Shown here: piece after piece, positions 3,829-59,161 of the stretch | How positions within the stretch are numbered: position 1 is the first letter of the stretch | How the letters are laid out: the number at the start of each line of letters is the position of its first letter | Origin: a virus | Taxonomy: Duplodnaviria > Heunggongvirae > Uroviricota > Caudoviricetes | Length of the DNA: 64,000 nucleotides | Direction: 5' to 3' (one strand) | Virus record (IMG/VR): IMGVR_UViG_3300042895_002216 | Made by a program: the position numbers and the translations under genes | Notes under the pieces: model-generated | What the model saw: the letters and a program-made list of their open reading frames with translations, nothing else | The model's database searches: none | What the model was told of the DNA's origin: nothing

Positions 3829-3851
3829 TTACTACTATATAAAATTAAAGC

Positions 3852-3878
3852 AAAGGCTTCCACATGGAAGCCTTTGTT
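3852..3878 (+). terminator. intrinsic terminator
   Basis: AAAGGCTTCC-acat-GGAAGCCTTTG hairpin. It lies inside the annotated 5' end of the 3818 ORF, which argues for the downstream start at 3893. Confidence 0.5.
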
Positions 3879-3892
3879 GGTATAGTAGAATA

Positions 3893-10849: not shown

Positions 10850-10873
10850 GACTTATTTAGTATAATAGTCTTA

Positions 10874-11488: not shown

Positions 11489-11490
11489 TT

Positions 11491-11688
11491 ATGCAAAATC
11501 AAATCATTCAAGACGTATGTCTTTATTTCTTATTCGGTATTTGTTGGATGATACTCGTTGAGTACATCGACTCCAAACAACCTGAGAAACAGTTAACTGT
11601 AATTGCTAGAATAGTAATTATCGTAACGTGGCCGCTAGCCGCATTCATTGGGATCCTAACCCTAATTCGAAAATCATTAAACAATTAA
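11491..11688 (+). CDS. small membrane protein
   Basis: 65 aa with two hydrophobic helices. Confidence 0.4.
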   Translation: MQNQIIQDVCLYFLFGICWMILVEYIDSKQPEKQLTVIARIVIIVTWPLAAFIGILTLIRKSLNN

Positions 11689-11690
11689 CA

Positions 11691-11900
11691 ATGGCAAAAA
11701 CCGTAGTAGTAAAAGAACAGTTCAGAACAAACGAACTAAGCCTAAACCCAGGTGGGTACACAGTTACCGTAGTATATTCAAACGGCGACAAGCGAGTTTA
11801 TAATAACGTAAAGAATCCCAAAGCCTACATTGGATCAATATCGAAAGCACAAGATGTTTCTCAAGCCCTAGTTGACGGAGAACTTTATTGGTCTCGATAA
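11691..11900 (+). CDS. hypothetical protein
   Basis: Start moved to MAKTVVVKEQ to avoid overlapping the previous gene. Confidence 0.4.
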   Translation: MAKTVVVKEQFRTNELSLNPGGYTVTVVYSNGDKRVYNNVKNPKAYIGSISKAQDVSQALVDGELYWSR

Positions 11901-11916
11901 ATAACTAGAAAGCACT

Positions 11917-12723: not shown

Positions 12724-12747
12724 GAATTTGTCTAATAAATAACTTAG

Positions 12748-13893: not shown

Positions 13894-14001
13894 TCTTATC
13901 ACTTACTGTAGTATAATAACAACAAGCGTAAATACTATTGGGCTTGACAGAAATATCTATGTCTTAAAACTTTTAGGACTTTTACAAATACAATAGACAA
14001 T

Positions 14002-17598: not shown

Positions 17599-18741
17599 AT
17601 GAATGTAAACCAAATAAAAACAGAAATTCTTTCAGGTTTAACTATTGCAATTGCTCTTGTACCTGAAGCAATTTCATTTGCTTTATTAGTCGGAGCTTCT
17701 CCTCAAATTGGATTATGGGCAGCAGTCTTCATGGCTCTGTCTACTGCAATATTCGGCGGAAGACCTGGTTTAATTAGTGGAGCGACTGGGGCAACTGCCG
17801 TAATTATGGCCGGCCTCGTATCAATTGCTGGAATTGAATCGCTTTTCCTTGGAGTAGTAGTTGCTGGAATTATTCAATTGATAATTTGGGCTTCAGGTGC
17901 ATGGAAAATATTTAAAAAGATTCCGCCTTCTGCTATTTCAGGTTTCTTAATTGCACTAGCGATTATGATTTTAGTAAGCCAGTTTAAATACTTAACTATC
18001 GGTAATCCATCTTCTACTGGCCTAATATTAACTATATCAACTATATTATTATGCGCAGCTGCAATGATATGGTCCTCACGGAAATTTAGTTTTCCTCCAG
18101 CGTTAGTGTCGATTACAGTTGGTTGCTTAATGGGAATTCCATTAGGCTTAGCGACAGTCGGCGATCTATCGCCAGTAACCGCAAGCTTGCCAACGCTAGC
18201 TATCCCAACCTTTAGTTGGAGTCTGCTATTGACAGTCTTACCGTATTCATTCGGGATGGCTGTGTCTGGCTTAACTGAATCTCTGTTGACTGTCGATACT
18301 GTGTCTCATAAATTAAATGAACACGGCGATAAAGCAAAAGAGACATTTGCTCAAGGGCTTGGTAATATAGTTAGCGGATTCTTTGGAACAATGGGAGGCT
18401 GCGTCCTAGTCGGACAGACTAATTTAAACGTAAATGCTGGAGCAAAGCATCGACTCTCTGGAATAGTTGCAGGGATTGGGCTCTCTCTAATTATTCTATT
18501 GTTTGGGAAATGGATTGAACAACTACCGCTAGTTGGATTAATTGGAGTAATGTTGGTAGTTGTATATCAAACTGGGGATTGGCAAAGCATAAAATCAGGA
18601 AATAAACTTAACTTATTGAGTATTATATTGACAGTTATTATTTCGTTAGCTACTCATAACTTAGCAATCGGTGTAATCATCGGGTCAATTGTATTCTATT
18701 TTAGTAAATTAATATTAAAGCATGACACACGTAAAGAATAA
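17599..18741 (+). CDS. polytopic membrane protein, SulP/anion-permease-like
   Basis: About 10 predicted TM helices. The N-terminal GLTIAIALVPEAISFALLVGASPQIGLWAA resembles the SulP permease core. No STAS domain. Confidence 0.5.
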   Translation: MNVNQIKTEILSGLTIAIALVPEAISFALLVGASPQIGLWAAVFMALSTAIFGGRPGLISGATGATAVIMAGLVSIAGIESLFLGVVVAGIIQLIIWASGAWKIFKKIPPSAISGFLIALAIMILVSQFKYLTIGNPSSTGLILTISTILLCAAAMIWSSRKFSFPPALVSITVGCLMGIPLGLATVGDLSPVTASLPTLAIPTFSWSLLLTVLPYSFGMAVSGLTESLLTVDTVSHKLNEHGDKAKETFAQGLGNIVSGFFGTMGGCVLVGQTNLNVNAGAKHRLSGIVAGIGLSLIILLFGKWIEQLPLVGLIGVMLVVVYQTGDWQSIKSGNKLNLLSIILTVIISLATHNLAIGVIIGSIVFYFSKLILKHDTRKE

Positions 18742-20083
18742 AACAGTAACTGAATACTTAGATCAGGACTATGCGATGTACGGAATGTACACGTTAGAAA
18801 ACCGGGCAATTCCTTCTGTAATAGATGGTTTCAAACCTACTCAGCGTAAAATCATTTATATCTCAGATAAAGTCTGGAAATCAGGCAATGAAAAGCCATT
18901 AAAGATATTCCAGTTAGGTGGTAAGATCGCAGCAGATGCCCACTACCATCACGGTGACGGGTCTCTAAATGGTGCAATCATTGGGATGGCTCAGTCATTT
19001 AAGAATTCATTACCTCTTCTTGACGAGATAGGCCAGTTCGGATCTCTAAGATCTCCTGAAGCTGGTGCGGCTCGTTATATTTCAACTAAACTTACTGGAA
19101 ATTTTAGACTTCTTTACAAGGATTTTGAATTGCTTGAGAATCAAGTCGAAGAAGGAAATACGATTGAACCTAAATTCTTCTTGCCAATTATCCCAACCGT
19201 TCTACTAAACGGAAGCTCAGGTATTGCAGTAGGATTTGCCACTAACATATTAAATCGTAATCCATTAGACTTAGTAGACTCATGTCTTAAAGTATTAGAT
19301 GGCAAGAAAATAGGCAAACTGCTTCCATGGTGGAGAGACTACATTGGCCCAGTCGAGTCAGTCGTTGGAACTAACCAGTACATTATGCGTGGAGTATACG
19401 AAGTTCTGAATACTACTACTGTCAAGATTACAGAGCTTCCGCCATCAATGACTTTTCAGAAATACGAAGTTCATTTGAATACTCTACAAGATAGAGGAAT
19501 TATTGTTTCGTACGATGACAATTCTTCAAATGGAATCAACTACACTCTTAAATTTGCAAGAGCTACACTAGCTGACCTAATTGGAAAAGGCCGGCTCGAC
19601 CAAACCCTTAAGATGATTGAGACTGAAACTGAGAACTTAACCTGCTTAAATGAAAAGGGCAAGCTTGCAATCTTTGAGGACATTACTCAAGTGGTAGATT
19701 ACTTTGTAAACTTTAGATTAAGTTTCTATGATAAACGCAAAGCATTCTTAATCAAGAAGTACGGTGAAGAATTAATTTACTTATCGAACCGAGCTAAATT
19801 CATTAAGCTTATTATTGATGGTAAACTTAAAGTAAATAACGTTCCACGTAAAGAGATCATTCTCTACCTGCAAACGGCAGACTTCGACGAAGTTAATGGA
19901 TCGTATAACTACTTACTCAACATGCCAATCCACTCTCTGACTAAAGAAACTTACGAGCAATTATTGAAAGAAGTTGCTGATATTAAATCGCTATTAGTCG
20001 ATATTAAAAAGAAGGATCCAACTGAGATGTATCGAGAAGATTTATTTGAGCTAAAGAAAAACCTAAAGTATTCTTCAAAGTAA
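18722..20083 (+). CDS. type II DNA topoisomerase DNA-cleavage subunit (T4 gp52 / GyrA N-terminal homolog)
   Basis: RAIPSVIDGFKPTQRKIIY (GyrA-like). Candidate active-site Tyr in AARYISTKL. Confidence 0.8.
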   Translation: MTHVKNKTVTEYLDQDYAMYGMYTLENRAIPSVIDGFKPTQRKIIYISDKVWKSGNEKPLKIFQLGGKIAADAHYHHGDGSLNGAIIGMAQSFKNSLPLLDEIGQFGSLRSPEAGAARYISTKLTGNFRLLYKDFELLENQVEEGNTIEPKFFLPIIPTVLLNGSSGIAVGFATNILNRNPLDLVDSCLKVLDGKKIGKLLPWWRDYIGPVESVVGTNQYIMRGVYEVLNTTTVKITELPPSMTFQKYEVHLNTLQDRGIIVSYDDNSSNGINYTLKFARATLADLIGKGRLDQTLKMIETETENLTCLNEKGKLAIFEDITQVVDYFVNFRLSFYDKRKAFLIKKYGEELIYLSNRAKFIKLIIDGKLKVNNVPRKEIILYLQTADFDEVNGSYNYLLNMPIHSLTKETYEQLLKEVADIKSLLVDIKKKDPTEMYREDLFELKKNLKYSSK

Positions 20084-20105: not shown

Positions 20106-20657
20106 ATGTTAAAATCATTTAGCCAATTCGTAACTGGATTATTTGAAAAGAAAGGAGACGCTCATAGTTATGGATGTGCAATGGTCTATTTCAATTTTCC
20201 AACAATGCCTGAACTGCATTCAAAAATAGATGAAGCAGATATCTACACAGAAGAGGGCGATCGTTCATACGGTCTTGAGGATGAACCTCATACAACTCTT
20301 TTATATGGACTTCATTCGGCAGATATTAATGACGCTAAGGTATTAGAGATATGTAAATCTAAACCAATCGGTCAACTGACTCTACATAATGCATCTCTAT
20401 TTGAGAATGCTAAATACGATGTACTTAAGTTTGATGTAGAAAATCCAGTGTTGGCTGAGATTAATGCAGAACTTAGTAAGTTACCTCACACTACTGATTT
20501 CCCAGACTACCATCCACATGCAACAATCGGGTACCTAAAGCCTGGAACCGGCAAGAAATACGTTGACTTATTTAATGGTAATCGGCATGAAGTCGCTGCT
20601 CATAAAATAGTTTATTCAAAACCTGACGACAGTCGAATCGAAGAAGAATGGAATTAA
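20106..20657 (+). CDS. 2H phosphoesterase superfamily protein (LigT-like) with degenerate leader
   Basis: Two H-x-[TS]-x motifs (EPHTTLLYG and HPHATIGYL) spaced as in 2H cyclic phosphodiesterases / 2'-5' RNA ligases. The N-terminus MLKSFSQFVTGLFEKKG resembles the leader family. Confidence 0.6.
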   Translation: MLKSFSQFVTGLFEKKGDAHSYGCAMVYFNFPTMPELHSKIDEADIYTEEGDRSYGLEDEPHTTLLYGLHSADINDAKVLEICKSKPIGQLTLHNASLFENAKYDVLKFDVENPVLAEINAELSKLPHTTDFPDYHPHATIGYLKPGTGKKYVDLFNGNRHEVAAHKIVYSKPDDSRIEEEWN

Positions 20658-21281: not shown

Positions 21282-22025
21282 TTAAAAGATATACTTTAAA
21301 AGAACTGACGCAGTTTCCTGAGAAGGATTAACTGAGTCTGTTATGTAATGAGGGTAACCTTGATAGCTATACGTATAAACTAATCCTATTTCTAAATTCT
21401 TTTTAATCTTAAGTGCGATTGTGTTTGTACTTCGCATGTTTAAATTATCTAGAAAAGAAACTTCTCTGCTTGAATAAATTGCTGGCTGAAATAGAGTAAC
21501 TGACGAGATCTTAATCAATCCGCTTTCGTAATTTGCTCTAAGTCTAGATGATGCTCTTACTGTAAAGTTATTATTTGAAACCTTAATGCTGGACCAAAAA
21601 TACTCTGGCAAAATTACTTCAGAGAAAACAATATCGAACTTCTTATTCTTGATAATTGATACGCCTAATCCCAAACCAGCTGAGCTTCGAAGATCTATTT
21701 TTCTCATGTATGATCTCTCATCTTCAGTAAATCCAATAACTTTAAACTTACCTATCTGTTTTGAAATATTTCCAGTCAAGTAGACTTCATTTTCGTACTG
21801 AGTCATTTCAGATTTTCCATACGCGGATTGCTTGCTCCAACGGTAAGTAGTATTTAGATTCCATTGATACGATCCAGTATCTCTTTTTAATTCAGCTTTC
21901 GTTGTAATACCAATTGCACTAAAGTTTCCCCTAGTTCCATCTCCTCCAACCGATATTGATTTTTTAATTTGACTAAATACAGGTAATGAGACTGTCAGTA
22001 ATAGTATCGTTAATATAAACTTCAT
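21282..22025 (-). CDS. secreted protein, possible outer-membrane beta-barrel
   Basis: Signal peptide MKFILTILLLTVSLPVFSQ. Alternating hydrophobic beta-strand-like pattern and a C-terminal aromatic residue. Confidence 0.45.
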   Translation of the reverse strand: MKFILTILLLTVSLPVFSQIKKSISVGGDGTRGNFSAIGITTKAELKRDTGSYQWNLNTTYRWSKQSAYGKSEMTQYENEVYLTGNISKQIGKFKVIGFTEDERSYMRKIDLRSSAGLGLGVSIIKNKKFDIVFSEVILPEYFWSSIKVSNNNFTVRASSRLRANYESGLIKISSVTLFQPAIYSSREVSFLDNLNMRSTNTIALKIKKNLEIGLVYTYSYQGYPHYITDSVNPSQETASVLLKYIF

Positions 22026-22492
22026 TATTTGTTACGTGTATTTTTTAACTGTATTATTTGGTTAACTGCATTTAGGAATAACCAGTCCTCGACATCAGTT
22101 AACTTACATAAAAAATTATATTCATGCATGTAACACATGAGCTCCTCTTCTCTTGCTGTAAACTTAATCAAGTTATTCCATAAGTACAGGTGATACGACT
22201 CATGCACCAATACGGCCGCTAAATTATTAATAGACGGACTAGTTACGTCCTTTGTATTAATCACAATAGTATTGGGTGGAAGGTTAGTAGATCTATCGCC
22301 CATTATAAACTCAATTCGTTTACAATTCGTAATCAGAGTTTGGTAACTAACTGAGTCAGTATCTTTTACAAGTAAAATAGCCCTCTCGACTCTAGCCTTC
22401 CAGCCGTCTCCGACATCGTCTATTACTATTTGAGAAAATCCAAATACTGGAATCGTTAATATTAATACAATTAAGGCATTTTTAAAATACAT
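22025..22492 (-). CDS. secreted protein with HExxH motif
   Basis: Signal peptide ending FSQ. VLVHESYHL is a zinc-metallopeptidase-type motif. Confidence 0.45.
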   Translation of the reverse strand: MYFKNALIVLILTIPVFGFSQIVIDDVGDGWKARVERAILLVKDTDSVSYQTLITNCKRIEFIMGDRSTNLPPNTIVINTKDVTSPSINNLAAVLVHESYHLYLWNNLIKFTAREEELMCYMHEYNFLCKLTDVEDWLFLNAVNQIIQLKNTRNK

Positions 22493-22944
22493 TGTTCAAG
22501 TGCTTTTTTGATAGAATTAGATACTGTCATTTTAGAAAACGGCATAGCACCCTCTTCCAATTCAATCATTACGGCTCTCACCTCAGTCTCAGACTCGCCA
22601 GTCCCTTCGTACTTTTGCCCGTTATAATAAATTCGAACAGCGACTTGTGTAACCTGCTCAGTCTTTTCTATTCCAGCAATACGTATGGTACTTTTAGGAA
22701 TACCGAAATAATAGATCTCAATCTTAATTGGGGATCCTGCATCAGATAGACAGTATTTAGAAGAAAGTAGGTCTTCTGCTATTTGCTTTACACCAAACCG
22801 AATATCACGGTTTCCTAATTCCCTAACCTTTGCGGTAGAATATACTGTGTCTATTTTAATACACATGTGAATTGGGCTAGTTTGCGAAAAAGCCAGCAGC
22901 TGTACCAATAGTAAAACTGCAAGCAATAAAATAAACTTCTTCAT
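22471..22944 (-). CDS. secreted protein
   Basis: Signal peptide MKKFILLLAVLLLVQLLAFSQ. Confidence 0.45.
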   Translation of the reverse strand: MKKFILLLAVLLLVQLLAFSQTSPIHMCIKIDTVYSTAKVRELGNRDIRFGVKQIAEDLLSSKYCLSDAGSPIKIEIYYFGIPKSTIRIAGIEKTEQVTQVAVRIYYNGQKYEGTGESETEVRAVMIELEEGAMPFSKMTVSNSIKKALEQCILKMP

Positions 22945-22957
22945 CTTATAAAATTTA

Positions 22958-23239
22958 TTATTTTTTTAGTTCAATTATTGCATCCTCAACGTATTTATCA
23001 CGTTGGTCTTGTAAGTATTGTATTCGATCGAGCATAATTTGTTTATCATCCTTTACTGTTTGCTCAGTATAGGCTTTTTGTGCTTCATATAGTTTTTGCC
23101 AATACGCTACACGCTCTTCCATCATCACGCCTTGATACCAAATAACCGCTATCATAAGTACGATGGTAAATGATTGTTCTTTTAGTTTAGAAAAGAAGGT
23201 ATCCGTAAATCCTGAAGTAGGGTTTGTTTCTTCTGCCAT
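22958..23239 (-). CDS. small membrane protein
   Basis: One TM helix (FTIVLMIAVIWYQGVMM) and a charged C-terminal coiled segment. Confidence 0.4.
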   Translation of the reverse strand: MAEETNPTSGFTDTFFSKLKEQSFTIVLMIAVIWYQGVMMEERVAYWQKLYEAQKAYTEQTVKDDKQIMLDRIQYLQDQRDKYVEDAIIELKK

Positions 23240-23259
23240 ATTTAATTTGTTTTTTTTAT

Positions 23260-24438
23260 TTATTGTGTATAGCCAGTCCGTAACAGATAAAAGCTAGTAG
23301 TTCCTCCATTAGTTGGTGTTGAAATAATCATTGATTGAACTCCTGGTATACTGGAGCGTAGATCACTTGTCCCGGAATTAATAGTTGTCCATTGAGCTGG
23401 CGTAAATATCCGATACGACGGATATGCATTTATCCAATTTGGAAATCTACCTGAAATTTTACCGAATATGCAATAGGAATCCGTTACATTAAACCGAGTA
23501 TCTTGATTAACGTCCATTGTATAATACAATTTAGAGCTTGGCATCACCGAGTATAATAACATTTGAATAGGGTATTGAGCAGCAGTTGATATTGGATTAC
23601 TAATAGTCAGATTTTCTAATCTAATTTGGAAATCATGGGACGCGTCATCTAAATTAGGTACCATTGAATATAGACCCAACGAATTAGTGTAATATGTTCC
23701 CTTTATGCTGAATGTAGTTTCCGGTGAAGCTGGTGTAAATCTAACTGAATAATTAGTTGCGCTCCATTGAGATGCATTCTTTCCACCGACTGGAACAACC
23801 GTTGACGAAGAAGTTGATATTAGACCGGCGGTCGCGTTATTACTACCACATAAAGGTTTTGAGGCATAATTTATATCTATTAAATTCGACGTTTCATATA
23901 GAATGAACTGAAATGTGTGTAGATTTGTTCTACACCCATAATGCGGAACTGCATTAAAAGAGACAGTCAACGATCTATTGGGCGATGTTCCTGATGTTAC
24001 GTATCTGATGTTAGCTGATCCAGGAAATAAGTCCTCCCAATCCGCTAAAATTGCGTTTAATGGAGACCCTGCATTTGGAATAAAGGCTGCAGTATATCCA
24101 GTTGTTTGGCCCGAGCTAAACCCGATCCATCCATTTGATCCAACGTAAAATTGAGTATACGTATTTCCAAAGTAGGTAAAACTAAATCCTATATTAAATG
24201 GTCCATGTGTAGCATCGTCCGATGATGGAATTACGGTACCGGTTGTATAACTAGGAGAAGTCGGATAAGTAGGAAAAGTTACTTCATATTGAACAATCCT
24301 TTTGCCGTATAGCAAGACTGGTATATTTTGTAAGCCTTGACCATTAGCTCCATAAACATATCCTGAATAAGTAAATGGTTGAGCATACACCGACCCTATA
24401 ATCAATGTAGCAATTAGTGTGATGATAAACTTTCTCAT
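23260..24438 (-). CDS. secreted protein
   Basis: Signal peptide MRKFIITLIATLIIGSVYAQ. 392 aa, rich in T/S/N/Y. Confidence 0.5.
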   Translation of the reverse strand: MRKFIITLIATLIIGSVYAQPFTYSGYVYGANGQGLQNIPVLLYGKRIVQYEVTFPTYPTSPSYTTGTVIPSSDDATHGPFNIGFSFTYFGNTYTQFYVGSNGWIGFSSGQTTGYTAAFIPNAGSPLNAILADWEDLFPGSANIRYVTSGTSPNRSLTVSFNAVPHYGCRTNLHTFQFILYETSNLIDINYASKPLCGSNNATAGLISTSSSTVVPVGGKNASQWSATNYSVRFTPASPETTFSIKGTYYTNSLGLYSMVPNLDDASHDFQIRLENLTISNPISTAAQYPIQMLLYSVMPSSKLYYTMDVNQDTRFNVTDSYCIFGKISGRFPNWINAYPSYRIFTPAQWTTINSGTSDLRSSIPGVQSMIISTPTNGGTTSFYLLRTGYTQ

Positions 24439-26105
24439 AATAGCATGCGAGTTCCCAGCATGATGGTATAGTTTAATGTGGATTCATTAATCGCCCAAGC
24501 TCCACCGGCGTTTATGTTAAGCTTAAATCGTTTAGTTATCCCGATATTAGTTCCCATAATAGGTAAAACCACATGTGGTGATTTTAATAGAACATCATTA
24601 TAGTAACTAACGTATGGGGCATACACGTACAAACATAACATTTTTACTGAAATTCTCTTAGAGATTTTCCAGTCATACATTCCTCCAGCAATAGCAGCAG
24701 TTCCTATAAAAGCAGTCCCTGATACTTGGCCGACTGAACCGGTTAGCATATAAAGAGCTTTTAGGTTTTTCGGCTTATTTAGAGTCCACATTTGACCTAC
24801 TGCTAATGTTCCATAGACAGTCATTTGTCTTTCAAAACCAATAGTAAGCGATGTAGAGATTAAATCTATTCTTCGCTTATTCATGAATGCATAAAAGCCT
24901 GTAATATTTGGACCCTTTATAGCAGTCGTATAGTCTGCACTAATTCCGTGAGATCTCTTTCCGTCCCATCTCATTGATGAGTAACCTCCAGTGACCTTTC
25001 CTCCAACTGTAACATCTGAATTTTTAAAATTGAATCCAACGAAATCGCTGCTTGCTAAAATACTAGGTCGATTCCCATTTTTATTAGAGGCACCGGCTGC
25101 TCCTCCACCTGCGGAAGTTGATTCCTGTACTGAACCAACTGATCCGCCAATTAAGTTAGTTTTTCCACCTGCTTCTGTTTCAGAAGTTGGCGTTGACTGA
25201 TTATTTGAGCCGCTTGTTCCAGAGCCAGCGGTCGTTCCAGACCCGCCTCCATTAACATTGCCGCTATTTGAAGTTGATCCGCTAGCTTGAGATCCGGTAG
25301 TTCCGTTGCCGGTTGTTGATCCGCTTCCGGTAGTTGAGCCGGTCGTTGAACCGCTTCCGGTAGTTGAGCCGGTCGTTGAACCGCTTCCAGTGGTTGATCC
25401 ACCTGCTTGAGACCCAGAGGTTCCATTGCCAGCTTGAGACCCAGCTGTTCCGTTACCGGCAGTTGATCCTGGTTCTCCAGATCCTCCGCTGCTTGTCGAG
25501 CCAGTTTCGTTCGAACCTTGAGTCTGTGAGCCCTGTGTCGTAGAAGATCCACTACTGCTAGTAGAGCTCCCATTGTTACTAGTGGTCCCAGAGTTAGAGC
25601 TACCACCAGTACTTCCATTAGATTGTGCATTTGTTGAAGTACTATTTTCTGCAGGTTTATCCGCCCCGCCTTTATTTTTGGAGTTACCCTTTGACTTGGA
25701 GGAATTTTGTACACTAGAGACAGTTCCGCCAATCATATTACTTGATCCGCCAGCCATATCAGATAGAGCCGATAATGAGTTTACTATTCCTAGAAAACTA
25801 ATTGCTGTATTTTGTGCTATATTAACTGAAGTAGGCATTCCTACTAAACTTGCACATGGGTTGTTATTACCAAAGGAAGAATAAACGCCTTGAGCCCATG
25901 TCTCAAAACCTCCATTGTAAAAATCCGTTGGTTGAAATGTATTTACTTGACCGTAATAGGTTACTGTTATTCCGTTTGATGGAACTTGTATTGTTTTGTT
26001 TATTCCAGTACATGGATCAGTGTAATTGTAGGAAAAGGTTTGAGCCATTCCCAATGACGATACTAAGATCCACGCAATAAGCAGTATAATTTTTTTAACA
26101 TACAT
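24435..26105 (-). CDS. secreted protein with long G/S/T-rich low-complexity linker and C-terminal beta-barrel-like domain
   Basis: Signal peptide ending GMAQ. (GSTTGSGSTTGSTT)n linker encoded by perfect 30-bp tandem DNA repeats at 25321-25380. C-terminal ~200 aa has alternating hydrophobic residues. Confidence 0.5.
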   Translation of the reverse strand: MYVKKIILLIAWILVSSLGMAQTFSYNYTDPCTGINKTIQVPSNGITVTYYGQVNTFQPTDFYNGGFETWAQGVYSSFGNNNPCASLVGMPTSVNIAQNTAISFLGIVNSLSALSDMAGGSSNMIGGTVSSVQNSSKSKGNSKNKGGADKPAENSTSTNAQSNGSTGGSSNSGTTSNNGSSTSSSGSSTTQGSQTQGSNETGSTSSGGSGEPGSTAGNGTAGSQAGNGTSGSQAGGSTTGSGSTTGSTTGSGSTTGSTTGSGSTTGNGTTGSQASGSTSNSGNVNGGGSGTTAGSGTSGSNNQSTPTSETEAGGKTNLIGGSVGSVQESTSAGGGAAGASNKNGNRPSILASSDFVGFNFKNSDVTVGGKVTGGYSSMRWDGKRSHGISADYTTAIKGPNITGFYAFMNKRRIDLISTSLTIGFERQMTVYGTLAVGQMWTLNKPKNLKALYMLTGSVGQVSGTAFIGTAAIAGGMYDWKISKRISVKMLCLYVYAPYVSYYNDVLLKSPHVVLPIMGTNIGITKRFKLNINAGGAWAINESTLNYTIMLGTRMLL

Positions 26106-26119
26106 TTGCGTTTCATATT

Positions 26120-26839
26120 TTAATTTTTGAAGATATTCTTCTTAATCATTCTCACCACTATCCTAGACGATGCTGTCTCTAACGCCTTTTTAGTTGTAAT
26201 ACCAATGGTAGATTGGTTAAATTTAATTTCACTATCGTCCACTCCATCTAAAATAGAAACGGTTTTAATAGTGGAAGCTTCGCCTAATCCTGAACCAACT
26301 AGAACTTCTCCAGTCTCAGCATCAACGAATTTTACCTGTAAACCCAGTCGAGTTGTTTGAGTTGTTTTAGACTCGCCGTTTATTCTAACGACTTCATCTT
26401 CTGATACAGAGAAATCGTAAACTTCAATATAGACAAAGTATTTTGCTAACTTGATTTTACCACGGCCGTCTAGTTTATTCTCAGTGAATCCTTTATCAGA
26501 CGCTTTAAATTGACTAATCATTCTCTCTTTAATTTCAAGTTTGTCTTCAGTAAATACAAAACGGTTTGTGTATTCCAAATATTCCAATACAATATTTGTT
26601 ACACCAAGACCAACCCGTTTATCCTTTAACTCAGGATACATTTCGTAAAGCTCCTCATTAATTCCAATCTTTAATAATTGAATAGGAATTTTAATTGTGT
26701 CAGTATATTCCGGAACAGAGTCAATTGACATCTTCTTTTCAAAAGAAGCTCGGTACTGCTCAGTCTTGATTGAACCAGGCTGAGCAATACATAAGCTTAC
26801 TGAGAAAAGCATTATTAAGATAAGTGCTAATCTCTTCAT
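26120..26839 (-). CDS. lipoprotein
   Basis: MKRLALILIMLFSVSLCIAQ with a lipobox-like SLC. Confidence 0.5.
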   Translation of the reverse strand: MKRLALILIMLFSVSLCIAQPGSIKTEQYRASFEKKMSIDSVPEYTDTIKIPIQLLKIGINEELYEMYPELKDKRVGLGVTNIVLEYLEYTNRFVFTEDKLEIKERMISQFKASDKGFTENKLDGRGKIKLAKYFVYIEVYDFSVSEDEVVRINGESKTTQTTRLGLQVKFVDAETGEVLVGSGLGEASTIKTVSILDGVDDSEIKFNQSTIGITTKKALETASSRIVVRMIKKNIFKN

Positions 26840-26841
26840 GA

Positions 26842-27204
26842 TTATTCGGTTACGTTATTTGAAGTAGTATTAGAAAGAGATACTCCATCTTCTTCGTCAA
26901 CCTTTTGAATTAACATTTTATCACGATCTTCTGAATTGAACCAGTAGTCAACTACTTTATTTAGGTTACCAACAAAGGCTCCCAATAAAAGAAGTAGTAA
27001 TTCTTTCCAATCTTCTGCGATTGTTACTCCAAAAAATACAGCTGAATTAATTCCAGCAATAATAAAGAAGAAAAGAAATAGAACGATTCCTGTAATTTTC
27101 CAACGGTTTGACTGCATTTGTTGTAGCATGTAGTAGAAGCGATTCTTGTCTTCAACCTTTACGTATGCAGATTCACCGATTAATAATTTTTTCAAATTAG
27201 ACAT
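26842..27204 (-). CDS. membrane protein (holin-like candidate)
   Basis: 120 aa with two adjacent TM segments, upstream of the endolysin on the same strand. Confidence 0.35.
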   Translation of the reverse strand: MSNLKKLLIGESAYVKVEDKNRFYYMLQQMQSNRWKITGIVLFLFFFIIAGINSAVFFGVTIAEDWKELLLLLLGAFVGNLNKVVDYWFNSEDRDKMLIQKVDEEDGVSLSNTTSNNVTE

Positions 27205-27265
27205 TGTAGTAGTAGTTTATTTTTAGTTCTGAAAATAAAAAGGCGGACGTTAATCCGCCTTCTGA

Positions 27266-27607
27266 TTACCAAGGAGCGTCTTCAGACTCGCTCTTCTTCT
27301 TTTCCGCTGGTTTTTCAGCTGGAGCTTTCTCAACAACTCTCTCACGGATTACTGTGTTAGTTCCGCCTGATTGTTTTTGTTGATTTGTATTATTGTTTTC
27401 AAGATTAACGTTGATAACTGGTTGAGCTGCTGGTGCAACCTGTTCAGTTTTCGTTTCTTCTTTTTCATGGTCACCTCCGTTAAATAGAGTAGTTGTAAGC
27501 CATGTACCTCCAGCTAAAACTGCCGTAGAGATCGTACCGATCAGGGTCTTCTTAAGACCTGACCATGTTCCATCATTTGTTTCTGCTGCGTTTGTTTCCT
27601 CAGACAT
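27266..27607 (-). CDS. membrane-anchored protein
   Basis: One TM helix (LIGTISTAVLAGGTWLTTTLF). C-terminal K/E/P-rich tail. Hairpin terminator on the minus strand at 27231-27260. Confidence 0.4.
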   Translation of the reverse strand: MSEETNAAETNDGTWSGLKKTLIGTISTAVLAGGTWLTTTLFNGGDHEKEETKTEQVAPAAQPVINVNLENNNTNQQKQSGGTNTVIRERVVEKAPAEKPAEKKKSESEDAPW

Positions 27608-27614
27608 TGTTTGT

Positions 27615-29537
27615 TTATTTTTTTATGATTTTAGTAGAGTTAATTTGATCAACTGCCTGTAAAGAAGCAACGTATAATCCGCTAGTTAACTGATTAATAT
27701 TGGAAGAGTATACGTATTTTCCAGCTGGCATGTCTTGATCAAGTATAACAAATTGTTCTGATCCGTTTAGGTCAACGATTACTAACTTAACCATTCCGCT
27801 ATTCTTAACTGAGAAGTCAAAGCTTATCTCTCCAGTAGTTGGATTGGGAAATGCGGTAATTTCAAAGTTATCCAATTGACCAGAAGGTCCAGCCATTTTA
27901 GCAACGATTAAGATGCCGTTTGCTGCGGTGATTGATAAATCCCTAGATTGATTGTCTCCTGAGAATTTTCTAGAAGTATACAAAGGCGATGCCTCCCAAT
28001 CAATTTGAGGTTTAAGTGCGATAAATCTCAATTTAAAAACTTCATAATTATCTGGAATCATGTAGCTTTTGTTAGCTGATGGATCGTAACCGGCCCATTC
28101 GATAATTCCGCCAGTTGGATTGAATGAAGACATCCACTGCATTGATTTAGCAGAGTTAGTAATGTCTTTAAATTCCAATAAGGTCTGATCGTATAACATT
28201 GCTAATTGAAGAGACGAAATATCCTTTCCTCCAGTTTTAACAGTAACCGGTATTTCTACTAGATTTCCTGAATTTACAGAAAGATTAGGAAGATTAACTT
28301 CAATTGAGCTCGTTGGAAAATCGTATTCAACTGTCATATCAATTACGTTTTCAGTTTGAGCTGGGGTTCCAGCCGGTGGATTGATCATTACTTCAATTGG
28401 CGTTAAACGAGCCATGTTGTAACCCGTACCGTTTGCATCTCCTGGAACAAGTACGTAATATTGAACTGAATCAGGTTGTCCTGGTAAAATGTCGTAGTAG
28501 AAGTTTGTTACTCCAGCATAAGTTGAAGTATAGTTAGTCGATGGAGATCCTGTGATTGTTGTGTATTGGGCAGCAGTAAAGAACTTAACATCCTCAACGG
28601 CATTAGGCCATTCAGTGAATCTTCCAGCAATTCTACCAAATACTCCGTATGCATCAGTTATTGTTACGTTAGTTGAACCGTTAACATCTGCTGTATAGAA
28701 GTCGAATCCGGAAGGAGTCGCTGACCCTAACACCCATTGATTAATTAATTGAGCATCTGCTGTTGATATAACGTTTCCTACCGTCATCGTATCACCTTTA
28801 ATTGCAAGGCGTACATCATAATAAGTAGTATCAATAATTTCGCTAAATGCAAAATTTCCACTTAGGTCAGTTACGTACGTATCATGAGTTCCCCAAGTAC
28901 CTCCAGCTTTTACCTTTTTCTCAAGAGCTAAAGTTAAGTTCTTTGCTCCAGTTCCAGTAACGTTTGTAAATTTACCATGGAAGTCTAAAGTAGGCTGTTC
29001 CCATACACCGCCGTAGCTATGCTTGCTTAGAGTAGTATCTAAACCTGTCTGAGATGCAGCGAGTGTAGTAAAAGAAGCTGCGCCACTAAACGTAAGAGCA
29101 CTGATTGAGGGTAACGCATAAAACGATGCAGCTGCAACGTGAGTAAAGGTTATTTCAAAGGTTTCACCGTCCGCTAGAGTATAAGTACTGCTGTTTCCAG
29201 TATACACTAATGAAAGGGTTACGTAACCGGTAGCATTACTATCTACTGACTGTAAATATAAGTTAGTAGGCGATCCAACTAGCGCAACTGATGCACTAGC
29301 AAATGCATCCTTATCGTAAAATATTCGAGTTTGAATACCTGTGTATTTTGAGATAGTTGCATTCTTTAGCGTGATTCTGGCTTTGGACTGACCTAGCGTA
29401 CTTGTACCAACTTGATATGTCGTATCAATGATTGTCCAAATTCCTGCGCCTGGGGCAGGAGGTCCACTTTGAGCATAAACTCCAGTAGAGAGTGCGCACG
29501 TGACTAGTGCGAATAGAATAAAGATTATTTTTTTCAT
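27615..29537 (-). CDS. secreted protein with type IX secretion system C-terminal sorting domain
   Basis: Signal peptide MKKIIFILFALVTCALSTGVYAQ. The last ~80 aa (FPNPTTGEISFDFSV..VKLVIVDLNGSEQFVILDQ..LTSGLYVASLQAVDQINSTKIIK) matches the Por secretion tail (T9SS CTD) pattern. Confidence 0.7.
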   Translation of the reverse strand: MKKIIFILFALVTCALSTGVYAQSGPPAPGAGIWTIIDTTYQVGTSTLGQSKARITLKNATISKYTGIQTRIFYDKDAFASASVALVGSPTNLYLQSVDSNATGYVTLSLVYTGNSSTYTLADGETFEITFTHVAAASFYALPSISALTFSGAASFTTLAASQTGLDTTLSKHSYGGVWEQPTLDFHGKFTNVTGTGAKNLTLALEKKVKAGGTWGTHDTYVTDLSGNFAFSEIIDTTYYDVRLAIKGDTMTVGNVISTADAQLINQWVLGSATPSGFDFYTADVNGSTNVTITDAYGVFGRIAGRFTEWPNAVEDVKFFTAAQYTTITGSPSTNYTSTYAGVTNFYYDILPGQPDSVQYYVLVPGDANGTGYNMARLTPIEVMINPPAGTPAQTENVIDMTVEYDFPTSSIEVNLPNLSVNSGNLVEIPVTVKTGGKDISSLQLAMLYDQTLLEFKDITNSAKSMQWMSSFNPTGGIIEWAGYDPSANKSYMIPDNYEVFKLRFIALKPQIDWEASPLYTSRKFSGDNQSRDLSITAANGILIVAKMAGPSGQLDNFEITAFPNPTTGEISFDFSVKNSGMVKLVIVDLNGSEQFVILDQDMPAGKYVYSSNINQLTSGLYVASLQAVDQINSTKIIKK

Positions 29538-29555
29538 CGAAGAACATTTGTTTTT

Positions 29556-30380
29556 TTATTTTAATAAAGCGTAATACTCGTTAAAGTGTTTAATACGGTC
29601 AGCCAAACCAATCGTTCCACCATTAACTCTCTTAGTTACCGCAGTTACAGCAGCAGTGTCTGCTCCTTTATCACAAATCGCCCATAAGCCATTAGACTGA
29701 AAAAAGAAAGCAGCCGATGCGAGTGGGTATTTTGTAGCGACTAGATCCGGATTAGCAACAGTATCCTCGCCGATAAATTTTGCAAAGTTTGTGTAATTCG
29801 ATTTACCAGTCAATTGAATGTAACCGCGACCTCTGAATTTAAAACCTTCTTTCGAAGCTTCATCTCCATTACCCATTCTAGAAGCATACACTCTAGCAGC
29901 GATTTTTTCAGGTTGACGAGCATAAGACTCGTTTAAGTTACCAGGAAAATACTTTCCGAAGATCTTTTTAAGACCGTCAGCTGAATAGTTTAGATTCTCG
30001 TTAACTGCTTTGAATCCTCCACTTTCGTGTCCACATTGCGCAAGGAAGTGAGCTAATCTTAAAGGATTAGTGATTCCGAATTTTGCAGCTGTGTCAGGAA
30101 TTTGAGCGATTACTGCTGCTGGTACATGTCCAGCTAGTTTTTCAAGTTTAAAACTTGATGGTGGGATTGGCGTAGCTGCTGGAGCTGCAACTGGAGCTGC
30201 ACCAAACATCTTAGCCCAAGTAGCATCTCCGACGATACCGTCAGGAGTAAGCCCGTTTGCTTGCTGCCATGCTTTGACAGCGGTTTCTGTTCCAGGTCCG
30301 AAGCTTCCATCTGCGCCTACTCCTAGGAGTGCTTGCATTTTGGCAACCTCTGGGCCATTAGATCCATTCTTTAATAGCAT
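29556..30380 (-). CDS. endolysin: peptidoglycan-binding domain plus GH19-like lytic domain
   Basis: N-terminal PG_binding_1-like repeat (NGPEVAKMQALLGV..GSFGPGTETAVKAWQQANGLTPDGIVG). AHFLAQCGHESGGF is the GH19 catalytic-region signature. Confidence 0.8.
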   Translation of the reverse strand: MLLKNGSNGPEVAKMQALLGVGADGSFGPGTETAVKAWQQANGLTPDGIVGDATWAKMFGAAPVAAPAATPIPPSSFKLEKLAGHVPAAVIAQIPDTAAKFGITNPLRLAHFLAQCGHESGGFKAVNENLNYSADGLKKIFGKYFPGNLNESYARQPEKIAARVYASRMGNGDEASKEGFKFRGRGYIQLTGKSNYTNFAKFIGEDTVANPDLVATKYPLASAAFFFQSNGLWAICDKGADTAAVTAVTKRVNGGTIGLADRIKHFNEYYALLK

Positions 30381-30432
30381 TTGAAAAGGGTTTTTTGTTA
30401 TTTATCAATTACTGACCTAAAAAAGAGTCATT

Positions 30433-30461
30433 AAAAAACCCCCAGTTTAAGCTGGGGGTTA
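30433..30461 (-). terminator. intrinsic terminator (minus strand)
   Basis: AACCCCCAG-tttaa-GCTGGGGGTT hairpin with a T-run on the minus strand, downstream of the 30481-31083 gene. Confidence 0.55.
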
Positions 30462-30480
30462 CTAGTAAACTCGTAAATTC

Positions 30481-31083
30481 TTAAACAATATCAGTTGATT
30501 CCAATAGAGTGTAAGTGAATGAATTTCCGTGGATTGCTTTAGCTAGATTTGCAAGTTTCATTAAGGCATTAAAGTCTGCAACCTTTTTAAATACTTGACA
30601 ACCTTCGGACCAGTTTTCAACGTATTCAGATTGAGTTTTTGGGTTAGAGCGGTGACCGTTAATTCCAAAGATTCCTTCTTGAATTGTTGTTTCGTCATAC
30701 TTCATGTCTTTGTTTTTATCACGATAAACTTTAACTGGCTTAACCTGTCTTAGTGCTTCGTATTTGCCCTGGTGTAATCCAATCGCCCACATTCCACGAT
30801 ATTGTCCTGGAACTACTCGAGCAACTCCATTTGGATTGTGATATTCAAGCATAGCTTTCTTACCCGGATCAGTAGTTATTGGCCAGCAGTTAAATTGCCA
30901 TACGCCGTTAACTTTATAAGAAGCAGTCATCCAATCGTCAAATAGATTAGTAACTTTATCTGCGATTGCCGCTGAGTTATTTCTAACCCCAACTAGATTT
31001 AGGTCATAGTCTTTGGCCCCTTCGAACCAAGCATAACCCTTTGCCTTAACTGCAGCCTCGATCATTTCTTTTGTGTAATTCAT
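30481..31083 (-). CDS. hypothetical protein (possible cell-wall-active enzyme)
   Basis: 200 aa, no signal peptide. Adjacent to the endolysin. No secure motif. Confidence 0.4.
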   Translation of the reverse strand: MNYTKEMIEAAVKAKGYAWFEGAKDYDLNLVGVRNNSAAIADKVTNLFDDWMTASYKVNGVWQFNCWPITTDPGKKAMLEYHNPNGVARVVPGQYRGMWAIGLHQGKYEALRQVKPVKVYRDKNKDMKYDETTIQEGIFGINGHRSNPKTQSEYVENWSEGCQVFKKVADFNALMKLANLAKAIHGNSFTYTLLESTDIV

Positions 31084-31124: not shown

Positions 31125-31526
31125 ATGCTTAAAACTATGATAAATAACCTTACCGTGAGAGAATACATTAATAAGAAGAGTGCGAATCTTCTTTTGGGAT
31201 GGTGTATTGAAAAGTATGGCCCAAGTAAGTACAACAATCTCAAAACGTTGAAGATTCAGATTGATCCGAACCATATACATTTCGGAATGTATGAACCTTG
31301 TCAAAACACAATCATTTTAAATCCAAAAAGACACAGGTCGTTACTTTCTTGGTGCAGCACAGTAATCCATGAATACACCCATTTCAAACAGGACATGGAA
31401 AAATACGGAGAATACCGAACAAGTTACGAAAAACATCCATACGAGATAACGTGTAATAAGAGAGGATATCGCGATCAACTTGAGGCCAGAAGATGGCTTA
31501 TTCGGAAACTCTGCACAAATTCTTAG
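31125..31526 (+). CDS. hypothetical protein with HExxH motif
   Basis: WCSTVIHEYTHF is a zinc-peptidase-like motif in a 133-aa ORF. Confidence 0.45.
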   Translation: MLKTMINNLTVREYINKKSANLLLGWCIEKYGPSKYNNLKTLKIQIDPNHIHFGMYEPCQNTIILNPKRHRSLLSWCSTVIHEYTHFKQDMEKYGEYRTSYEKHPYEITCNKRGYRDQLEARRWLIRKLCTNS

Positions 31527-31567: not shown

Positions 31568-31741
31568 ATGAAGAAATCAATTTTGCTTTTCGCTTTTGCA
31601 CTAGTTGCAATGATCGCTATCACTAGCTGTTCTAACTCTGCTCCAGCTGACTCTACTGTTACTGTTGCTGACTCAACTCTAGTTGACTCAACTTCAGTAA
31701 CCACTGACTCAACTCTAGTTGACACAGTTACTGTAAAGTAA
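31568..31741 (+). CDS. small lipoprotein
   Basis: MKKSILLFAFALVAMIAITSC has a lipobox. D/S/T/V repeats follow. Hairpin terminator at 31767-31789 lies just downstream. Confidence 0.4.
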   Translation: MKKSILLFAFALVAMIAITSCSNSAPADSTVTVADSTLVDSTSVTTDSTLVDTVTVK

Positions 31742-31843
31742 TCAGAGAAACCTCTCGACTCTAAGTGCCTAGATTTCTAGGCATTTTTTGTTTAACTTGT
31801 TAAACCCTTTCGACTTTTATAGTAGAATAAATTAAACTGAAAT

Positions 31844-36256: not shown

Positions 36257-36332
36257 TGGTGAGGTAGCTCAGATGGTAGAGCACAGGACTGAAAATCCTG
36301 GTGTCGGCGGTTCGATCCCGCCCCTCACCACC
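36257..36332 (+). tRNA. tRNA-Phe (GAA), CCA encoded
   Basis: Acceptor GGTGAGG/CCTCACC. Anticodon loop CTGAAAA. T-arm GGTTCGATCC. Confidence 0.85.
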
Positions 36333-36411
36333 AACAAAAAAATGAATAAGAATATGAAACGTAAACGCTAAAGGCCCAGTGACTCCCAGAGTTACAGGTC
36401 TAAATACACAG

Positions 36412-36485
36412 GTCTTCGTAGCTCAGTTGGTTAGAGCACCTCACTTTTAATGAGGGAGTCACAGGTTCGAGTCCTGTCGGGGACA
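36412..36485 (+). tRNA. tRNA-Lys (TTT)
   Basis: Anticodon arm CCTCA-CTTTTAA-TGAGG. T-arm AGGTTCGAGTCCT. Confidence 0.8.
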
Positions 36486-36491
36486 CTAAAC

Positions 36492-36568
36492 TGGAATATA
36501 GCTCAATTGGTTAGAGCATTCGCCTGATACGCGAAAGGTTATAGGTTCGATTCCTATTATTCCAACCA
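36492..36568 (+). tRNA. tRNA-Ile (GAT), CCA encoded
   Basis: Anticodon loop CTGATAC. T-arm AGGTTCGATTCCT. Confidence 0.8.
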
Positions 36569-36573
36569 AACAT

Positions 36574-36651
36574 TGCGGGATGCGTAGAAAGCGGTTATCT
36601 CGTCAGTCTCATAAGCTGAAGTTCCCGGTTCGAGTCCGGGTCCCGCAACCA
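36574..36651 (+). tRNA. tRNA-Met (CAT), elongator-type
   Basis: Anticodon arm TCAGT-CTCATAA-GCTGA. T-arm CCGGTTCGAGTCCGG. Confidence 0.75.
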
Positions 36652-36660
36652 AAAGAATAC

Positions 36661-59153: not shown

Positions 59154-59161
59154 CAAAAACT

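Follow-up and report, generated by a model that had tools for sequence, protein, structure and literature searches.

A conserved gene module of Bacteroidota phages encodes a candidate type IX secretion cargo with cohesin and dockerin-like domains

The stretch of 64,000 nucleotides analysed here, referred to as the window, belongs to the IMG/VR virus record IMGVR_UViG_3300042895_002216 (Caudoviricetes) and contains at 21282–31083 a block of minus-strand genes, which raises the question of why a phage carries a set of secreted and envelope proteins on the strand opposite to its other genes and what such proteins might do for the infected cell. An earlier note, made from the letters alone, had described the block as one cassette of secreted, envelope and lysis proteins and had proposed that one of them is exported by the host's type IX secretion system (T9SS). 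The evidence presented below points to a conserved module that is built around a candidate T9SS cargo and may present lectins at the surface of the infected cell. The features that carry this argument belong to two proteins, a 640-residue protein named here as the scaffold and a 392-residue protein that occupies what we call the lectin slot:

27615–29537, minus strand: 640-residue scaffold with a signal peptide, an N-terminal domain, a transthyretin-like sandwich, a dockerin-like module, a cohesin and a type-A sorting domain
28614–28811, minus strand: dockerin-like module of the scaffold (residues 243–308), for which the family profile matched the ScaB dockerin 4uyp_B
28005–28304, minus strand: cohesin domain of the scaffold (residues 412–511), PF00963
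27618–27851, minus strand: type-A T9SS C-terminal sorting domain of the scaffold (residues 563–640), PF18962 and TIGR04183
23260–24438, minus strand: 392-residue secreted protein of the lectin slot, with a variable head and a conserved beta-sandwich plus dockerin-like tail (tail at about 23263–23715)

The region spanning residues 563–640, at the extreme C-terminus of the scaffold, matched PF18962 (Por_Secre_tail) with 32.0 bits against a cut-off of 27 and TIGR04183 with 31.6 bits against a cut-off of 23, and the sorting domain was matched in all 36 non-redundant relatives. The profile of the scaffold family also detected a solved T9SS sorting domain (8glj_D, E = 0.013), and no NCBIfam or Pfam match to the type-B T9SS domain (TIGR04131/CHU_C) was observed in the 640-residue protein. 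Signal peptides were called by a simple heuristic, which asks for a positively charged N-terminus followed by a hydrophobic core, and the scaffold showed two lysines, a hydrophobic core at residues 4–22 and the residues YAQ with glutamine at the expected cleavage site. The type IX C-terminal sorting domain claimed in the earlier note was thus borne out by both hidden Markov models, each over its curated cut-off. The accompanying proposal that the host T9SS exports a phage protein holds at the level of sequence, as the protein has a signal peptide and a sorting domain, the latter kept in all relatives, and at this level the 640-residue protein is a bona fide candidate for type-A T9SS cargo.

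The cohesin of the scaffold, which like the dockerin-like domains, the lectin heads, the CsgG/LpoB-like protein and the wide distribution of the module had escaped the earlier note, was recognised with 42.2 bits against the PF00963 cut-off of 24.1, was present in 33 of the 36 relatives and, using the family profile, was matched with the cohesin structure 6kg8_A (E = 9.5e-4). The same profile detected the ScaB dockerin 4uyp_B with E = 1.1e-3, and the Pfam family Dockerin_1 was matched (E < 0.01) in 11 of the 36 relatives. Within the second loop of this dockerin-like module, D284, N286 and D295 were invariant in the alignment, and these residues agree with the calcium-binding loop pattern of dockerins. 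The structure matches obtained with the family profile for cohesin, dockerin and sorting domain each fell at the expected position of the scaffold. In addition, residues 214–328 of the scaffold, which comprise the beta-sandwich, the dockerin-like module and the segment following it, were 40% identical to the C-terminal 150 residues of the 392-residue protein.

In the relatives of this 392-residue protein, the tail was found to be constant while the head changes. The heads were assigned to Laminin_G_3 (12 relatives), Lectin_C (9), Ig_7 (5), GEVED (3) and PA14 (2), Dockerin_1 was matched in 10 of 41 relatives (E < 0.01), and CHU_C, the type-B T9SS domain, was present in the lectin-slot protein of a single relative. 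The head of the window protein itself gave no match in Pfam. Together, the relatives show a slot in which putatively carbohydrate-binding heads are exchanged and the dockerin-like tail is retained.

The scaffold and the lectin-slot protein belong to a larger set of genes that travel together, and the other members of this set in the window are as follows:

27266–27607, minus strand: 113-residue protein with one weak hydrophobic segment at about residues 20–42 and an invariant C-terminal tryptophan
26842–27204, minus strand: 120-residue protein with hydrophobic segments at residues 40–58 and about 68–85 and a charged C-terminal tail
26120–26839, minus strand: 239-residue secreted protein, a distant CsgG/LpoB superfamily member with the highest conservation among the module proteins that are widely shared
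24435–26105, minus strand: 556-residue protein with a signal peptide, a two-cysteine N-terminal domain, a disordered linker rich in glycine, serine and threonine and a predicted C-terminal 12-stranded barrel
25077–25748, minus strand: low-complexity linker of the 556-residue protein (residues 120–343), which holds a 30-bp tandem repeat at 25308–25397
24441–25064, minus strand: predicted 12-stranded beta-barrel domain of the 556-residue protein (residues 348–555), from AlphaFold2 and Foldseek
22471–22944, minus strand: 157-residue secreted protein with no recognised fold
22025–22492, minus strand: 155-residue secreted protein with a zincin-type HExxH motif

The arrangement of these genes was compared in 88 loci that were chosen by similarity to the 239-residue protein. 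The co-oriented order of scaffold, 113-residue protein, 120-residue protein (where it occurs), 239-residue protein, 556-residue protein, lectin slot, 157-residue protein and 155-residue protein was conserved in about 80 loci and in the cultured Flavobacterium phage vB_FspM_immuto. Homologues of the scaffold were found in 86 of the 88 loci, those of the 113-residue protein in 84 and always directly after the scaffold gene, and those of the 120-, 239- and 556-residue proteins in 42, 88 and 86 loci, respectively. The lectin slot was counted in 87 loci, a figure which is somewhat inflated because some of its matches fall on the shared module within the scaffold gene, and the 157- and 155-residue proteins had homologues in 72 and 60 loci. 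The median identity to the window proteins, the absolute level of which is biased by the choice of loci, was 81% for the 120-residue protein in its 42 loci, 78% for the endolysin encoded in the same block and 76% for the 239-residue protein, and it was 55% for the scaffold, 52% for the 556-residue protein and 35% for the lectin slot.

The four other genes of the block were not found to be fixed parts of this arrangement:

30481–31083, minus strand: 200-residue protein with no signal peptide, phrog_3000 (5.8e-38)
29556–30380, minus strand: 274-residue endolysin, with PG_binding_1 at 54 bits and glycoside hydrolase family 19 (GH19) at 36.6 bits in Pfam, and phrog_181 (4.6e-70)
22958–23239, minus strand: 93-residue protein with one hydrophobic segment, outside the conserved core
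21282–22025, minus strand: 247-residue DUF481 outer-membrane barrel protein, PF04338 at 35.1 bits (cut-off 21.1)

In 51 of the 88 loci the endolysin was encoded no farther than 10 kb from the module; the 200-residue protein was present close to the module in 25 loci, the DUF481 protein in 16 and the 93-residue protein in 3, and the strand and position of these genes vary among the loci. The antisense layout of the window was also observed in L015, a close collinear relative. In three further relatives (L046, L049 and L007), the module has the sense orientation and is flanked by homologues of the genes at 31125 and 31844, and the antisense part consists only of the endolysin with or without DUF481. 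Because the module stands in sense in these three relatives, the antisense cassette is regarded as the product of a rearrangement and the eight-gene module as the conserved unit. The block is a composite in which two cell-wall hydrolase genes and the gene of a DUF481 barrel are combined with the envelope module of eight genes, and the idea of one functional cassette was abandoned, as lysis enzymes and a DUF481 barrel are joined there to a separately conserved module.

The only cultured carrier of the module is vB_FspM_immuto (locus L001), in which it spans 8930–14812 and the host of which is Flavobacterium sp. LMO8. Flavobacterium is a T9SS-bearing genus. Among the 88 loci, immuto alone has the scaffold divided between two genes, gp14 and gp15, both of which code for a signal peptide. 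In the gp14 product, this is followed by the N-terminal domain of the scaffold and its dockerin-like module, and a sorting domain is lacking, while gp15 (243 residues) has its own signal peptide (MKSWIVILLLSINSLYSQ), a cohesin at 36.6 bits and Por_Secre_tail at 36.7 bits. The gp13 product consists of a signal peptide, a Lectin_C domain and a dockerin-like tail, and it is also devoid of a sorting domain. The sole T9SS-tagged protein of immuto is thus the cohesin carrier, which is the layout expected if the cohesin carrier exports and anchors the others. The possibility of the split being a frameshift artefact was rejected, as the downstream open reading frame (ORF) has its own signal peptide with glutamine at the cleavage site. 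No homologue of the 120-residue or the 155-residue protein was detected in immuto.

A variant of the module was also noticed at 3006–8971 of L008, a contig placed in a Sediminibacterium metagenome bin. Its 589-residue scaffold has a cohesin at 31 bits and no sorting domain, the next ORF encodes a lipoprotein-like protein of 118 residues that scores 20.1 bits with Por_Secre_tail against the cut-off of 27, and homologues of the 113-, 239- and 556-residue proteins follow, with no lectin slot after them.

The block as a whole is filled by 12 co-oriented minus-strand ORFs. Outside it, each minus-strand ORF of at least 90 residues overlaps a plus-strand gene, and all other real genes of the window are on the plus strand, so that the block is the only antisense one of the window, as had been stated, and the convergent gene ends at 21281/21282 were confirmed as well. 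Signal-peptide-like N-termini were found in 7 of the 12 ORFs of the block and in 1 of the 61 other ORFs of the window (Fisher p = 3.6e-6), the single outside case being a lipoprotein-like ORF of 57 residues beside the block. Glutamine adjoins the expected cleavage site in all seven and is conserved in the family alignments. Such a glutamine corresponds to the Q-rule of Bacteroidetes for substrates of signal peptidase I (PMC5837995) and has been noted in Porphyromonas phages too (PMC10367356). The seven are accordingly taken to be likely signal peptidase I substrates and not lipoproteins. The count of eight secreted proteins was lowered to seven by the heuristic, and the lipoboxes that had been proposed were not supported, given the glutamine in all seven and a lack of conservation of the apparent lipobox cysteine of the 239-residue protein. 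Likewise, internal hydrophobic segments were found in three small proteins (93, 113 and 120 residues) instead of the two transmembrane proteins first reported.

The 239-residue protein has 6366 clusters in a large protein database, the best 120 of which are 81–91% identical to it. It is conserved to a much greater degree than its neighbours in the block, as phages whose scaffolds are 45–73% identical share 62–88% in this protein. The family contains long invariant runs of residues, including a charged hairpin FSVSEDE. The protein gave no direct match in Pfam (E <= 0.1), including CsgG (PF03783), or among PDB sequences. A profile search of 1.84 billion representatives returned 248 relatives, and when full-length family members were scanned, CsgG of Pfam was matched in 22 of 36 and LpoB in 10 of 36; the profile of the wider family reached E. 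coli CsgG with E = 0.021. By way of these intermediate sequences, the protein is placed as a remote member in the CsgG/LpoB superfamily and is not called a channel. The segment aligned to the first membrane hairpin of CsgG, the boundaries of which are those that we assume, is charged, and a CsgG-type channel is doubtful for this reason. The window copy has a cysteine close to the cleavage site that most relatives are without, whereas the glutamine following the signal peptide does not vary. Structure prediction gave a poor model for this protein.

The 556-residue protein was modelled with AlphaFold2 from an alignment of 121 sequences. Residues 23–118 were predicted as a small folded alpha/beta domain with two invariant cysteines, residues 120–343 as a disordered linker without helix (per-residue confidence, pLDDT, of about 30) and residues 348–555 as a barrel of 12 strands with pLDDT of 80–92. 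The linker is highly variable in sequence and length among the relatives, and its 30-bp repeat was measured by TRF as 3.0 copies of 93% identity. Thus, the glycine-, serine- and threonine-rich spacer and the C-terminal barrel described earlier are upheld by the model, and the repeats are not perfect as had been thought. In Foldseek searches the lowest E-value was that of FapF (3.5e-6, TM-scores of 0.42–0.52), the best superpositions were with KdgM, PcoB and NanC (TM-scores of 0.69, 0.65 and 0.64), and the autotransporter barrels of EstA, BrkA, NalP and Hbp as well as intimin were also retrieved. A phage DUF481 protein was the top match among viral models. The barrel being a diverged DUF481 domain was considered and rejected, with a probability of 1.2% in a comparison of profiles. 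The protein matched none of the Pfam or NCBIfam families, including the autotransporter beta-domain, and it is predicted from its model to be a 12-stranded outer-membrane barrel.

Among the smaller proteins of the module, the 113-residue protein is probably a membrane anchor, judged from its hydrophobic segment. In the 120-residue protein, the segment at residues 40–58 came from a hydrophobicity scan and that at about 68–85 was read from the sequence; its sole family match was a weak one to phrog_38564, which is of unknown function (E = 0.0014), and the protein may be called holin-like in shape only. In the HExxH motif of the 155-residue protein, the two histidines and the glutamate were invariant in all 33 aligned sequences, and the matches to SprT-like and BSP families were weak. 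The 157-residue protein gave no informative match in Pfam or the PDB, even when its family profile was used. Direct sequence searches of Pfam, NCBIfam, PHROG and the PDB returned nothing informative for the 239-, 157-, 113-, 392- and 556-residue proteins, and the same held for searches with family profiles of the 239- and 157-residue proteins.

The endolysin has the two domains that were ascribed to it, peptidoglycan binding and GH19, and both Pfam scores listed above bear this out. The 200-residue protein shares a domain with the endolysin family phrog_33083 (4.5e-14), gave no match in Pfam or the PDB and is probably a second protein of cell-wall hydrolase type. It also has the pattern H...SEGC, which is reminiscent of the catalytic motif of YkuD-type L,D-transpeptidases, and no Pfam or PDB match backs that resemblance. 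The 93-residue protein matched the holin family phrog_9316 weakly (E = 0.0069), and no spanin family of Pfam, NCBIfam or PHROG was matched in the block.

The distribution of the module was monitored with its most widely shared proteins. Relatives of the 239-residue protein are encoded on 250 IMG/VR viral contigs, which are up to 434 kb long. In the species genomes of GTDB they were found on two contigs, both in metagenome bins (Bacteroidetes and Sediminibacterium) and both with phage genes. Among 50,697 GenBank phage records, the 239-residue and 640-residue proteins were matched only in isolates of Flavobacterium phage vB_FspM_immuto, and a nucleotide search with the whole block gave no match to the GenBank phages.

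What the sequences show are the domains, their conservation and the division of the scaffold in immuto, and from these we infer how export, binding, location and purpose may be connected. All proteins of the module would reach the periplasm through Sec, and the host T9SS would move the scaffold over the outer membrane, where it would stay attached or near the surface. Through its cohesin, the scaffold would then bind the lectin protein at the dockerin-like tail, and perhaps other scaffold molecules at their dockerin-like module, so that the infected cell would display glycan-binding heads chosen by the phage. The 113-, 120-, 239-, 556- and 157-residue proteins and the zincin-like 155-residue protein would be the envelope-embedded part of the same apparatus. 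We give about an even chance to the reading that a T9SS-exported cohesin anchor displays dockerin-tagged lectins, most likely for adhesion of the infected cell to its neighbours or to glycan-rich particles, with receptor masking as a close alternative purpose. Adhesion is preferred and agrees with the idea of sibling capture put forward for phage curli genes (PMC9004378). A more elaborate form, which seems to us unlikely, is a surface-display machine in which the cohesin carrier takes folded dockerin-tagged lectins along through the T9SS and then keeps them on the infected cell, the 113-, 120-, 239- and 556-residue proteins make up an envelope complex, and cells or particles are captured before the burst. 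Several points weigh against the display of lectins by the scaffold. The dockerin-like module of the window scaffold scores 13.3 bits with Dockerin_1, under the cut-off of 22.9, and its first calcium-binding loop looks degenerate; the lectin protein has no sorting domain, and its piggy-back export via the T9SS is speculation; five conserved proteins get no defined role in the model. The presence of the endolysin within 10 kb in 51 of the 88 loci and the holin-like shape of the 120-residue protein would both suit lysis, and the one-for-one masking of an abundant glycan receptor by a lectin would not be easy. Virion decoration, which had been listed among the possible roles, is the least compatible with export by Sec and the T9SS.

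The closeness of the lysis genes gives rise to the main rival view, that the module is the envelope-disruption part of Bacteroidota lysis, equivalent to holin plus spanin, in which the 120-residue protein would be the holin and the 113-, 239- and 556-residue proteins would connect the inner membrane to the outer one and rupture the latter after the endolysin cuts the wall. The endolysin gene is indeed directly upstream of the scaffold gene and co-oriented with it in the window and in many relatives, the 120-residue protein is highly conserved with its two hydrophobic segments and charged tail, the 113-, 239- and 556-residue proteins could together cover the inner membrane, periplasm and outer membrane, a canonical spanin was not found in the block, and the CsgG protein of phage Melnitz has been proposed as a lysis regulator (PMC9004378). 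However, a T9SS-exported cohesin scaffold with swappable lectin heads would be of no obvious use in lysis, and a bridge of fixed span is ill-suited to the 556-residue protein because the length of its linker varies from about 20 to 250 residues among relatives. Moreover, T9SS export requires a living, energised cell well ahead of lysis. In immuto, the module is located among replication genes, the annotated lysis enzyme is about 7 kb away and the 120-residue homologue was not detected; the endolysin differs among loci in its strand and its position with respect to the module, and the holin assignment comes from weak matches. We hold a lysis role to be unlikely on this balance, and a quite small likelihood is given to the displayed complex serving superinfection exclusion or receptor masking, by which the infected cell would cover or displace the receptor of the phage, block later phages and spare the progeny from being lost on debris. 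This reading has its molecular anatomy in common with the display of lectins for adhesion, and the variable heads would suit strain-specific receptors. The receptor of Flavobacterium phages would often be a T9SS-dependent surface component; in the titles of two papers, phage resistance in Flavobacterium is linked to gliding-motility and T9SS genes, and because of this link T9SS-dependent surface proteins appear to matter for adsorption and receptor masking is placed next to adhesion. The same idea has been put forward for the variable T9SS cargo of Cryophage (PMC7468147). On the other hand, abundant surface glycans on the same cell would demand very large amounts of protein for masking. To our knowledge, exclusion proteins are single small membrane proteins and not eight-gene modules.

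A nutritional purpose, in which the lectins gather polysaccharide and the barrel acts as an oligosaccharide porin of KdgM/NanC type to fuel the replication of a very large genome, is considered very improbable. The barrel superposes best on KdgM and NanC, two small 12-stranded porins, and on PcoB, which transports copper. The heads are of carbohydrate-binding types, phage-encoded porins and outer-membrane barrels are among the viral structure matches, and Cryophage has T9SS-tagged glycoside hydrolases (PMC7468147). Yet no glycoside hydrolase or inner-membrane transporter of Pfam or NCBIfam was found in the module, the fold match is generic to all 12-stranded barrels, and both the tethered N-terminal domain and the extremely strong conservation of the 239-residue protein would be left without an explanation. 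The block being host-derived or mis-assembled bacterial DNA is effectively refuted. The two matches in metagenome-assembled bacterial genomes (Bacteroidetes and Sediminibacterium) and an outer-membrane and secreted content typical of bacteria might suggest it, but both of those contigs carry the same phage genes, the 239-residue protein gene is on the 250 viral contigs, the complete genome of an isolated phage carries the module, the flanks are phage genes collinear with those of relatives, and the GC content of the block (about 0.35–0.42) is near that of the rest of the window.

Parts of this picture are known from other systems. T9SS cargo of phages has been described in metagenomic Bacteroidetes phages, namely Cryophage (Bellas et al. 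2020, PMC7468147) and the crAss-like BACON contigs (de Jonge et al. 2019, PMC6949934), and surface modification or exclusion was proposed for it. Like the gene described here, those phage genes have a type-A sorting domain; they are variable, have carbohydrate-related content (endoglucanase, GH39, PA14 and BACON) and are presumed to hijack the T9SS. The known cargoes are single unrelated genes of 76-kb or crAss-like phages, whereas here a cohesin/dockerin-like scaffold stands in a fixed eight-gene module and the variable heads are on proteins without a sorting domain. The resemblance to the cellulosome lies in a cohesin over the Pfam threshold, a two-segment dockerin-like module with conserved aspartate and asparagine residues, variable heads on a constant docking tail and low-complexity linkers. 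Unlike the cellulosome, the system is viral and belongs to diderm cells, would have a T9SS sorting domain as its anchor in place of an S-layer homology domain or sortase, and bears lectin heads in place of enzymes; one cohesin and one dockerin-like module are in the same polypeptide, the latter under the Pfam threshold in the window, and the binding is a predicted one.

CsgG and CsgF of phages are known from the pelagimyophages and the OM43 phage Melnitz (PMC7029224, PMC9004378), which resemble the carriers of this module in being lytic aquatic phages that have a gene of the CsgG superfamily without curli subunit genes. The ideas advanced for that CsgG, namely sibling capture, uptake and lysis control, overlap with those discussed here (PMC7029224, PMC9004378). 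For the Melnitz protein, a predicted structure similar to that of the CsgG channel of E. coli has been reported (PMC9004378), whereas the 239-residue protein is without a direct CsgG match or a conserved lipobox cysteine, and the hosts are Bacteroidota here and Proteobacteria there. The 556-residue protein is similar to FapF and type V autotransporters in its predicted 12-stranded C-terminal barrel, long disordered linker and folded N-terminal domain; it differs from them in having no detected sequence similarity, no predicted plug or pore helix, and a small two-cysteine alpha/beta domain in place of their coiled coil or beta-helix passenger. Like lysis cassettes of Gram-negative hosts, the block has an endolysin next to small membrane proteins and proteins for both membranes, but no spanin pair is recognisable, the holin assignment is weak and the cohesin scaffold, lectins and barrel have no counterpart there. 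Full-text literature searches did not turn up this module, the combination of cohesin and dockerin-like domains with a T9SS tag in a virus, or the swapping of lectin heads. Phage T9SS cargo and phage CsgG-like genes are thus already known, and the module is apparently undescribed.

If the display of lectins by the scaffold is true, a large and widespread group of Bacteroidota phages, mostly from freshwater samples, would reprogramme the surface of the infected cell via the host T9SS, using a cohesin–dockerin logic otherwise best known from cellulosomes. A lytic phage would in that case have a new means of controlling host adhesion, aggregation or receptor access during infection, and functions would be gained for several unannotated families abundant in metagenomes, of which the family of the 239-residue protein alone has more than 6000 clusters. 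As the cultured pair of vB_FspM_immuto and Flavobacterium sp. LMO8 carries the module, the question is directly testable.

Transcription signals were looked for within and around the block. The two strongest minus-strand terminator hairpins were found inside it:

30437–30460, minus strand: terminator-like hairpin after the 200-residue protein gene, with a 9-bp stem of which 6 pairs are GC, then a T run
27238–27263, minus strand: terminator-like hairpin between the 113- and 120-residue protein genes, with an 11-bp stem, then a T run

The terminator-like site at the distal end (21240–21223) is weak, and a clean plus-strand hairpin is present outside the other end of the block at 31763–31786. In total, 9 terminator-like sites were observed against 6.5 ± 2.9 expected, which is not above chance. 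The block had been thought to be flanked by terminators on both sides, which does not hold with the strongest minus-strand hairpins being internal, the distal one weak and the total at chance level. Inverted repeats were also sought at the block borders to account for the inversion, and none was convincing.

The surroundings of the block provide further information on the phage itself. A topoisomerase II subunit encoded at 18722–20083 on the plus strand had its nearest GenBank relatives in uncultured phage genomes of 460–640 kb (50–58% identity), the top matches being LR745206, LR756502, LR756504 and LR756500. The 239- and 640-residue proteins had no match in these four genomes, which appear to be without the module. 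The window contains 26 tRNA genes, a number that fits a very large phage genome, and together with the topoisomerase matches and a phage RNA polymerase sigma factor (3818–4417, plus strand; phrog_1740, 3.5e-23) they are the reason for assigning the window to a large phage. The tRNA genes lie at 36258–39216 and also at 33559, 53120 and 59084–60011, with 18 of the 26 in one GC-rich cluster of 3 kb, where the GC content is about 0.5 compared with about 0.39 elsewhere. The sigma factor was considered as a fixed upstream partner of the module and dismissed, since such adjacency is confined to 8 loci of a single sub-lineage (L002–L006, L013, L014 and L022), where a sigma factor gene lies 127 bp upstream of that for the scaffold; the sigma factor of the window is 17 kb from the module.

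Just upstream of the block, a protein of 183 residues (20106–20657, plus strand) matched 2'-5' RNA ligase with 25.3 bits and Acb1, which acts against the cyclic oligonucleotide-based antiphage signalling system (CBASS), with 25.0 bits, both just under their cut-offs of 27, and it may be a candidate anti-defence phosphodiesterase. On the other side of the block, the lipoprotein-like ORF of 57 residues (31568–31741, plus strand) has the lipobox ITSC and a 36-bp direct repeat coding for DSTLVD-type units, and its site is the one at which three relatives hold the whole module. Next to it, a protein of 133 residues (31125–31526, plus strand) has an HExxH motif (VIHEYTH) and a weak match to the metallopeptidase-like family DUF6782, and its homologue adjoins the module or the endolysin in L046, L049, L007 and L015.

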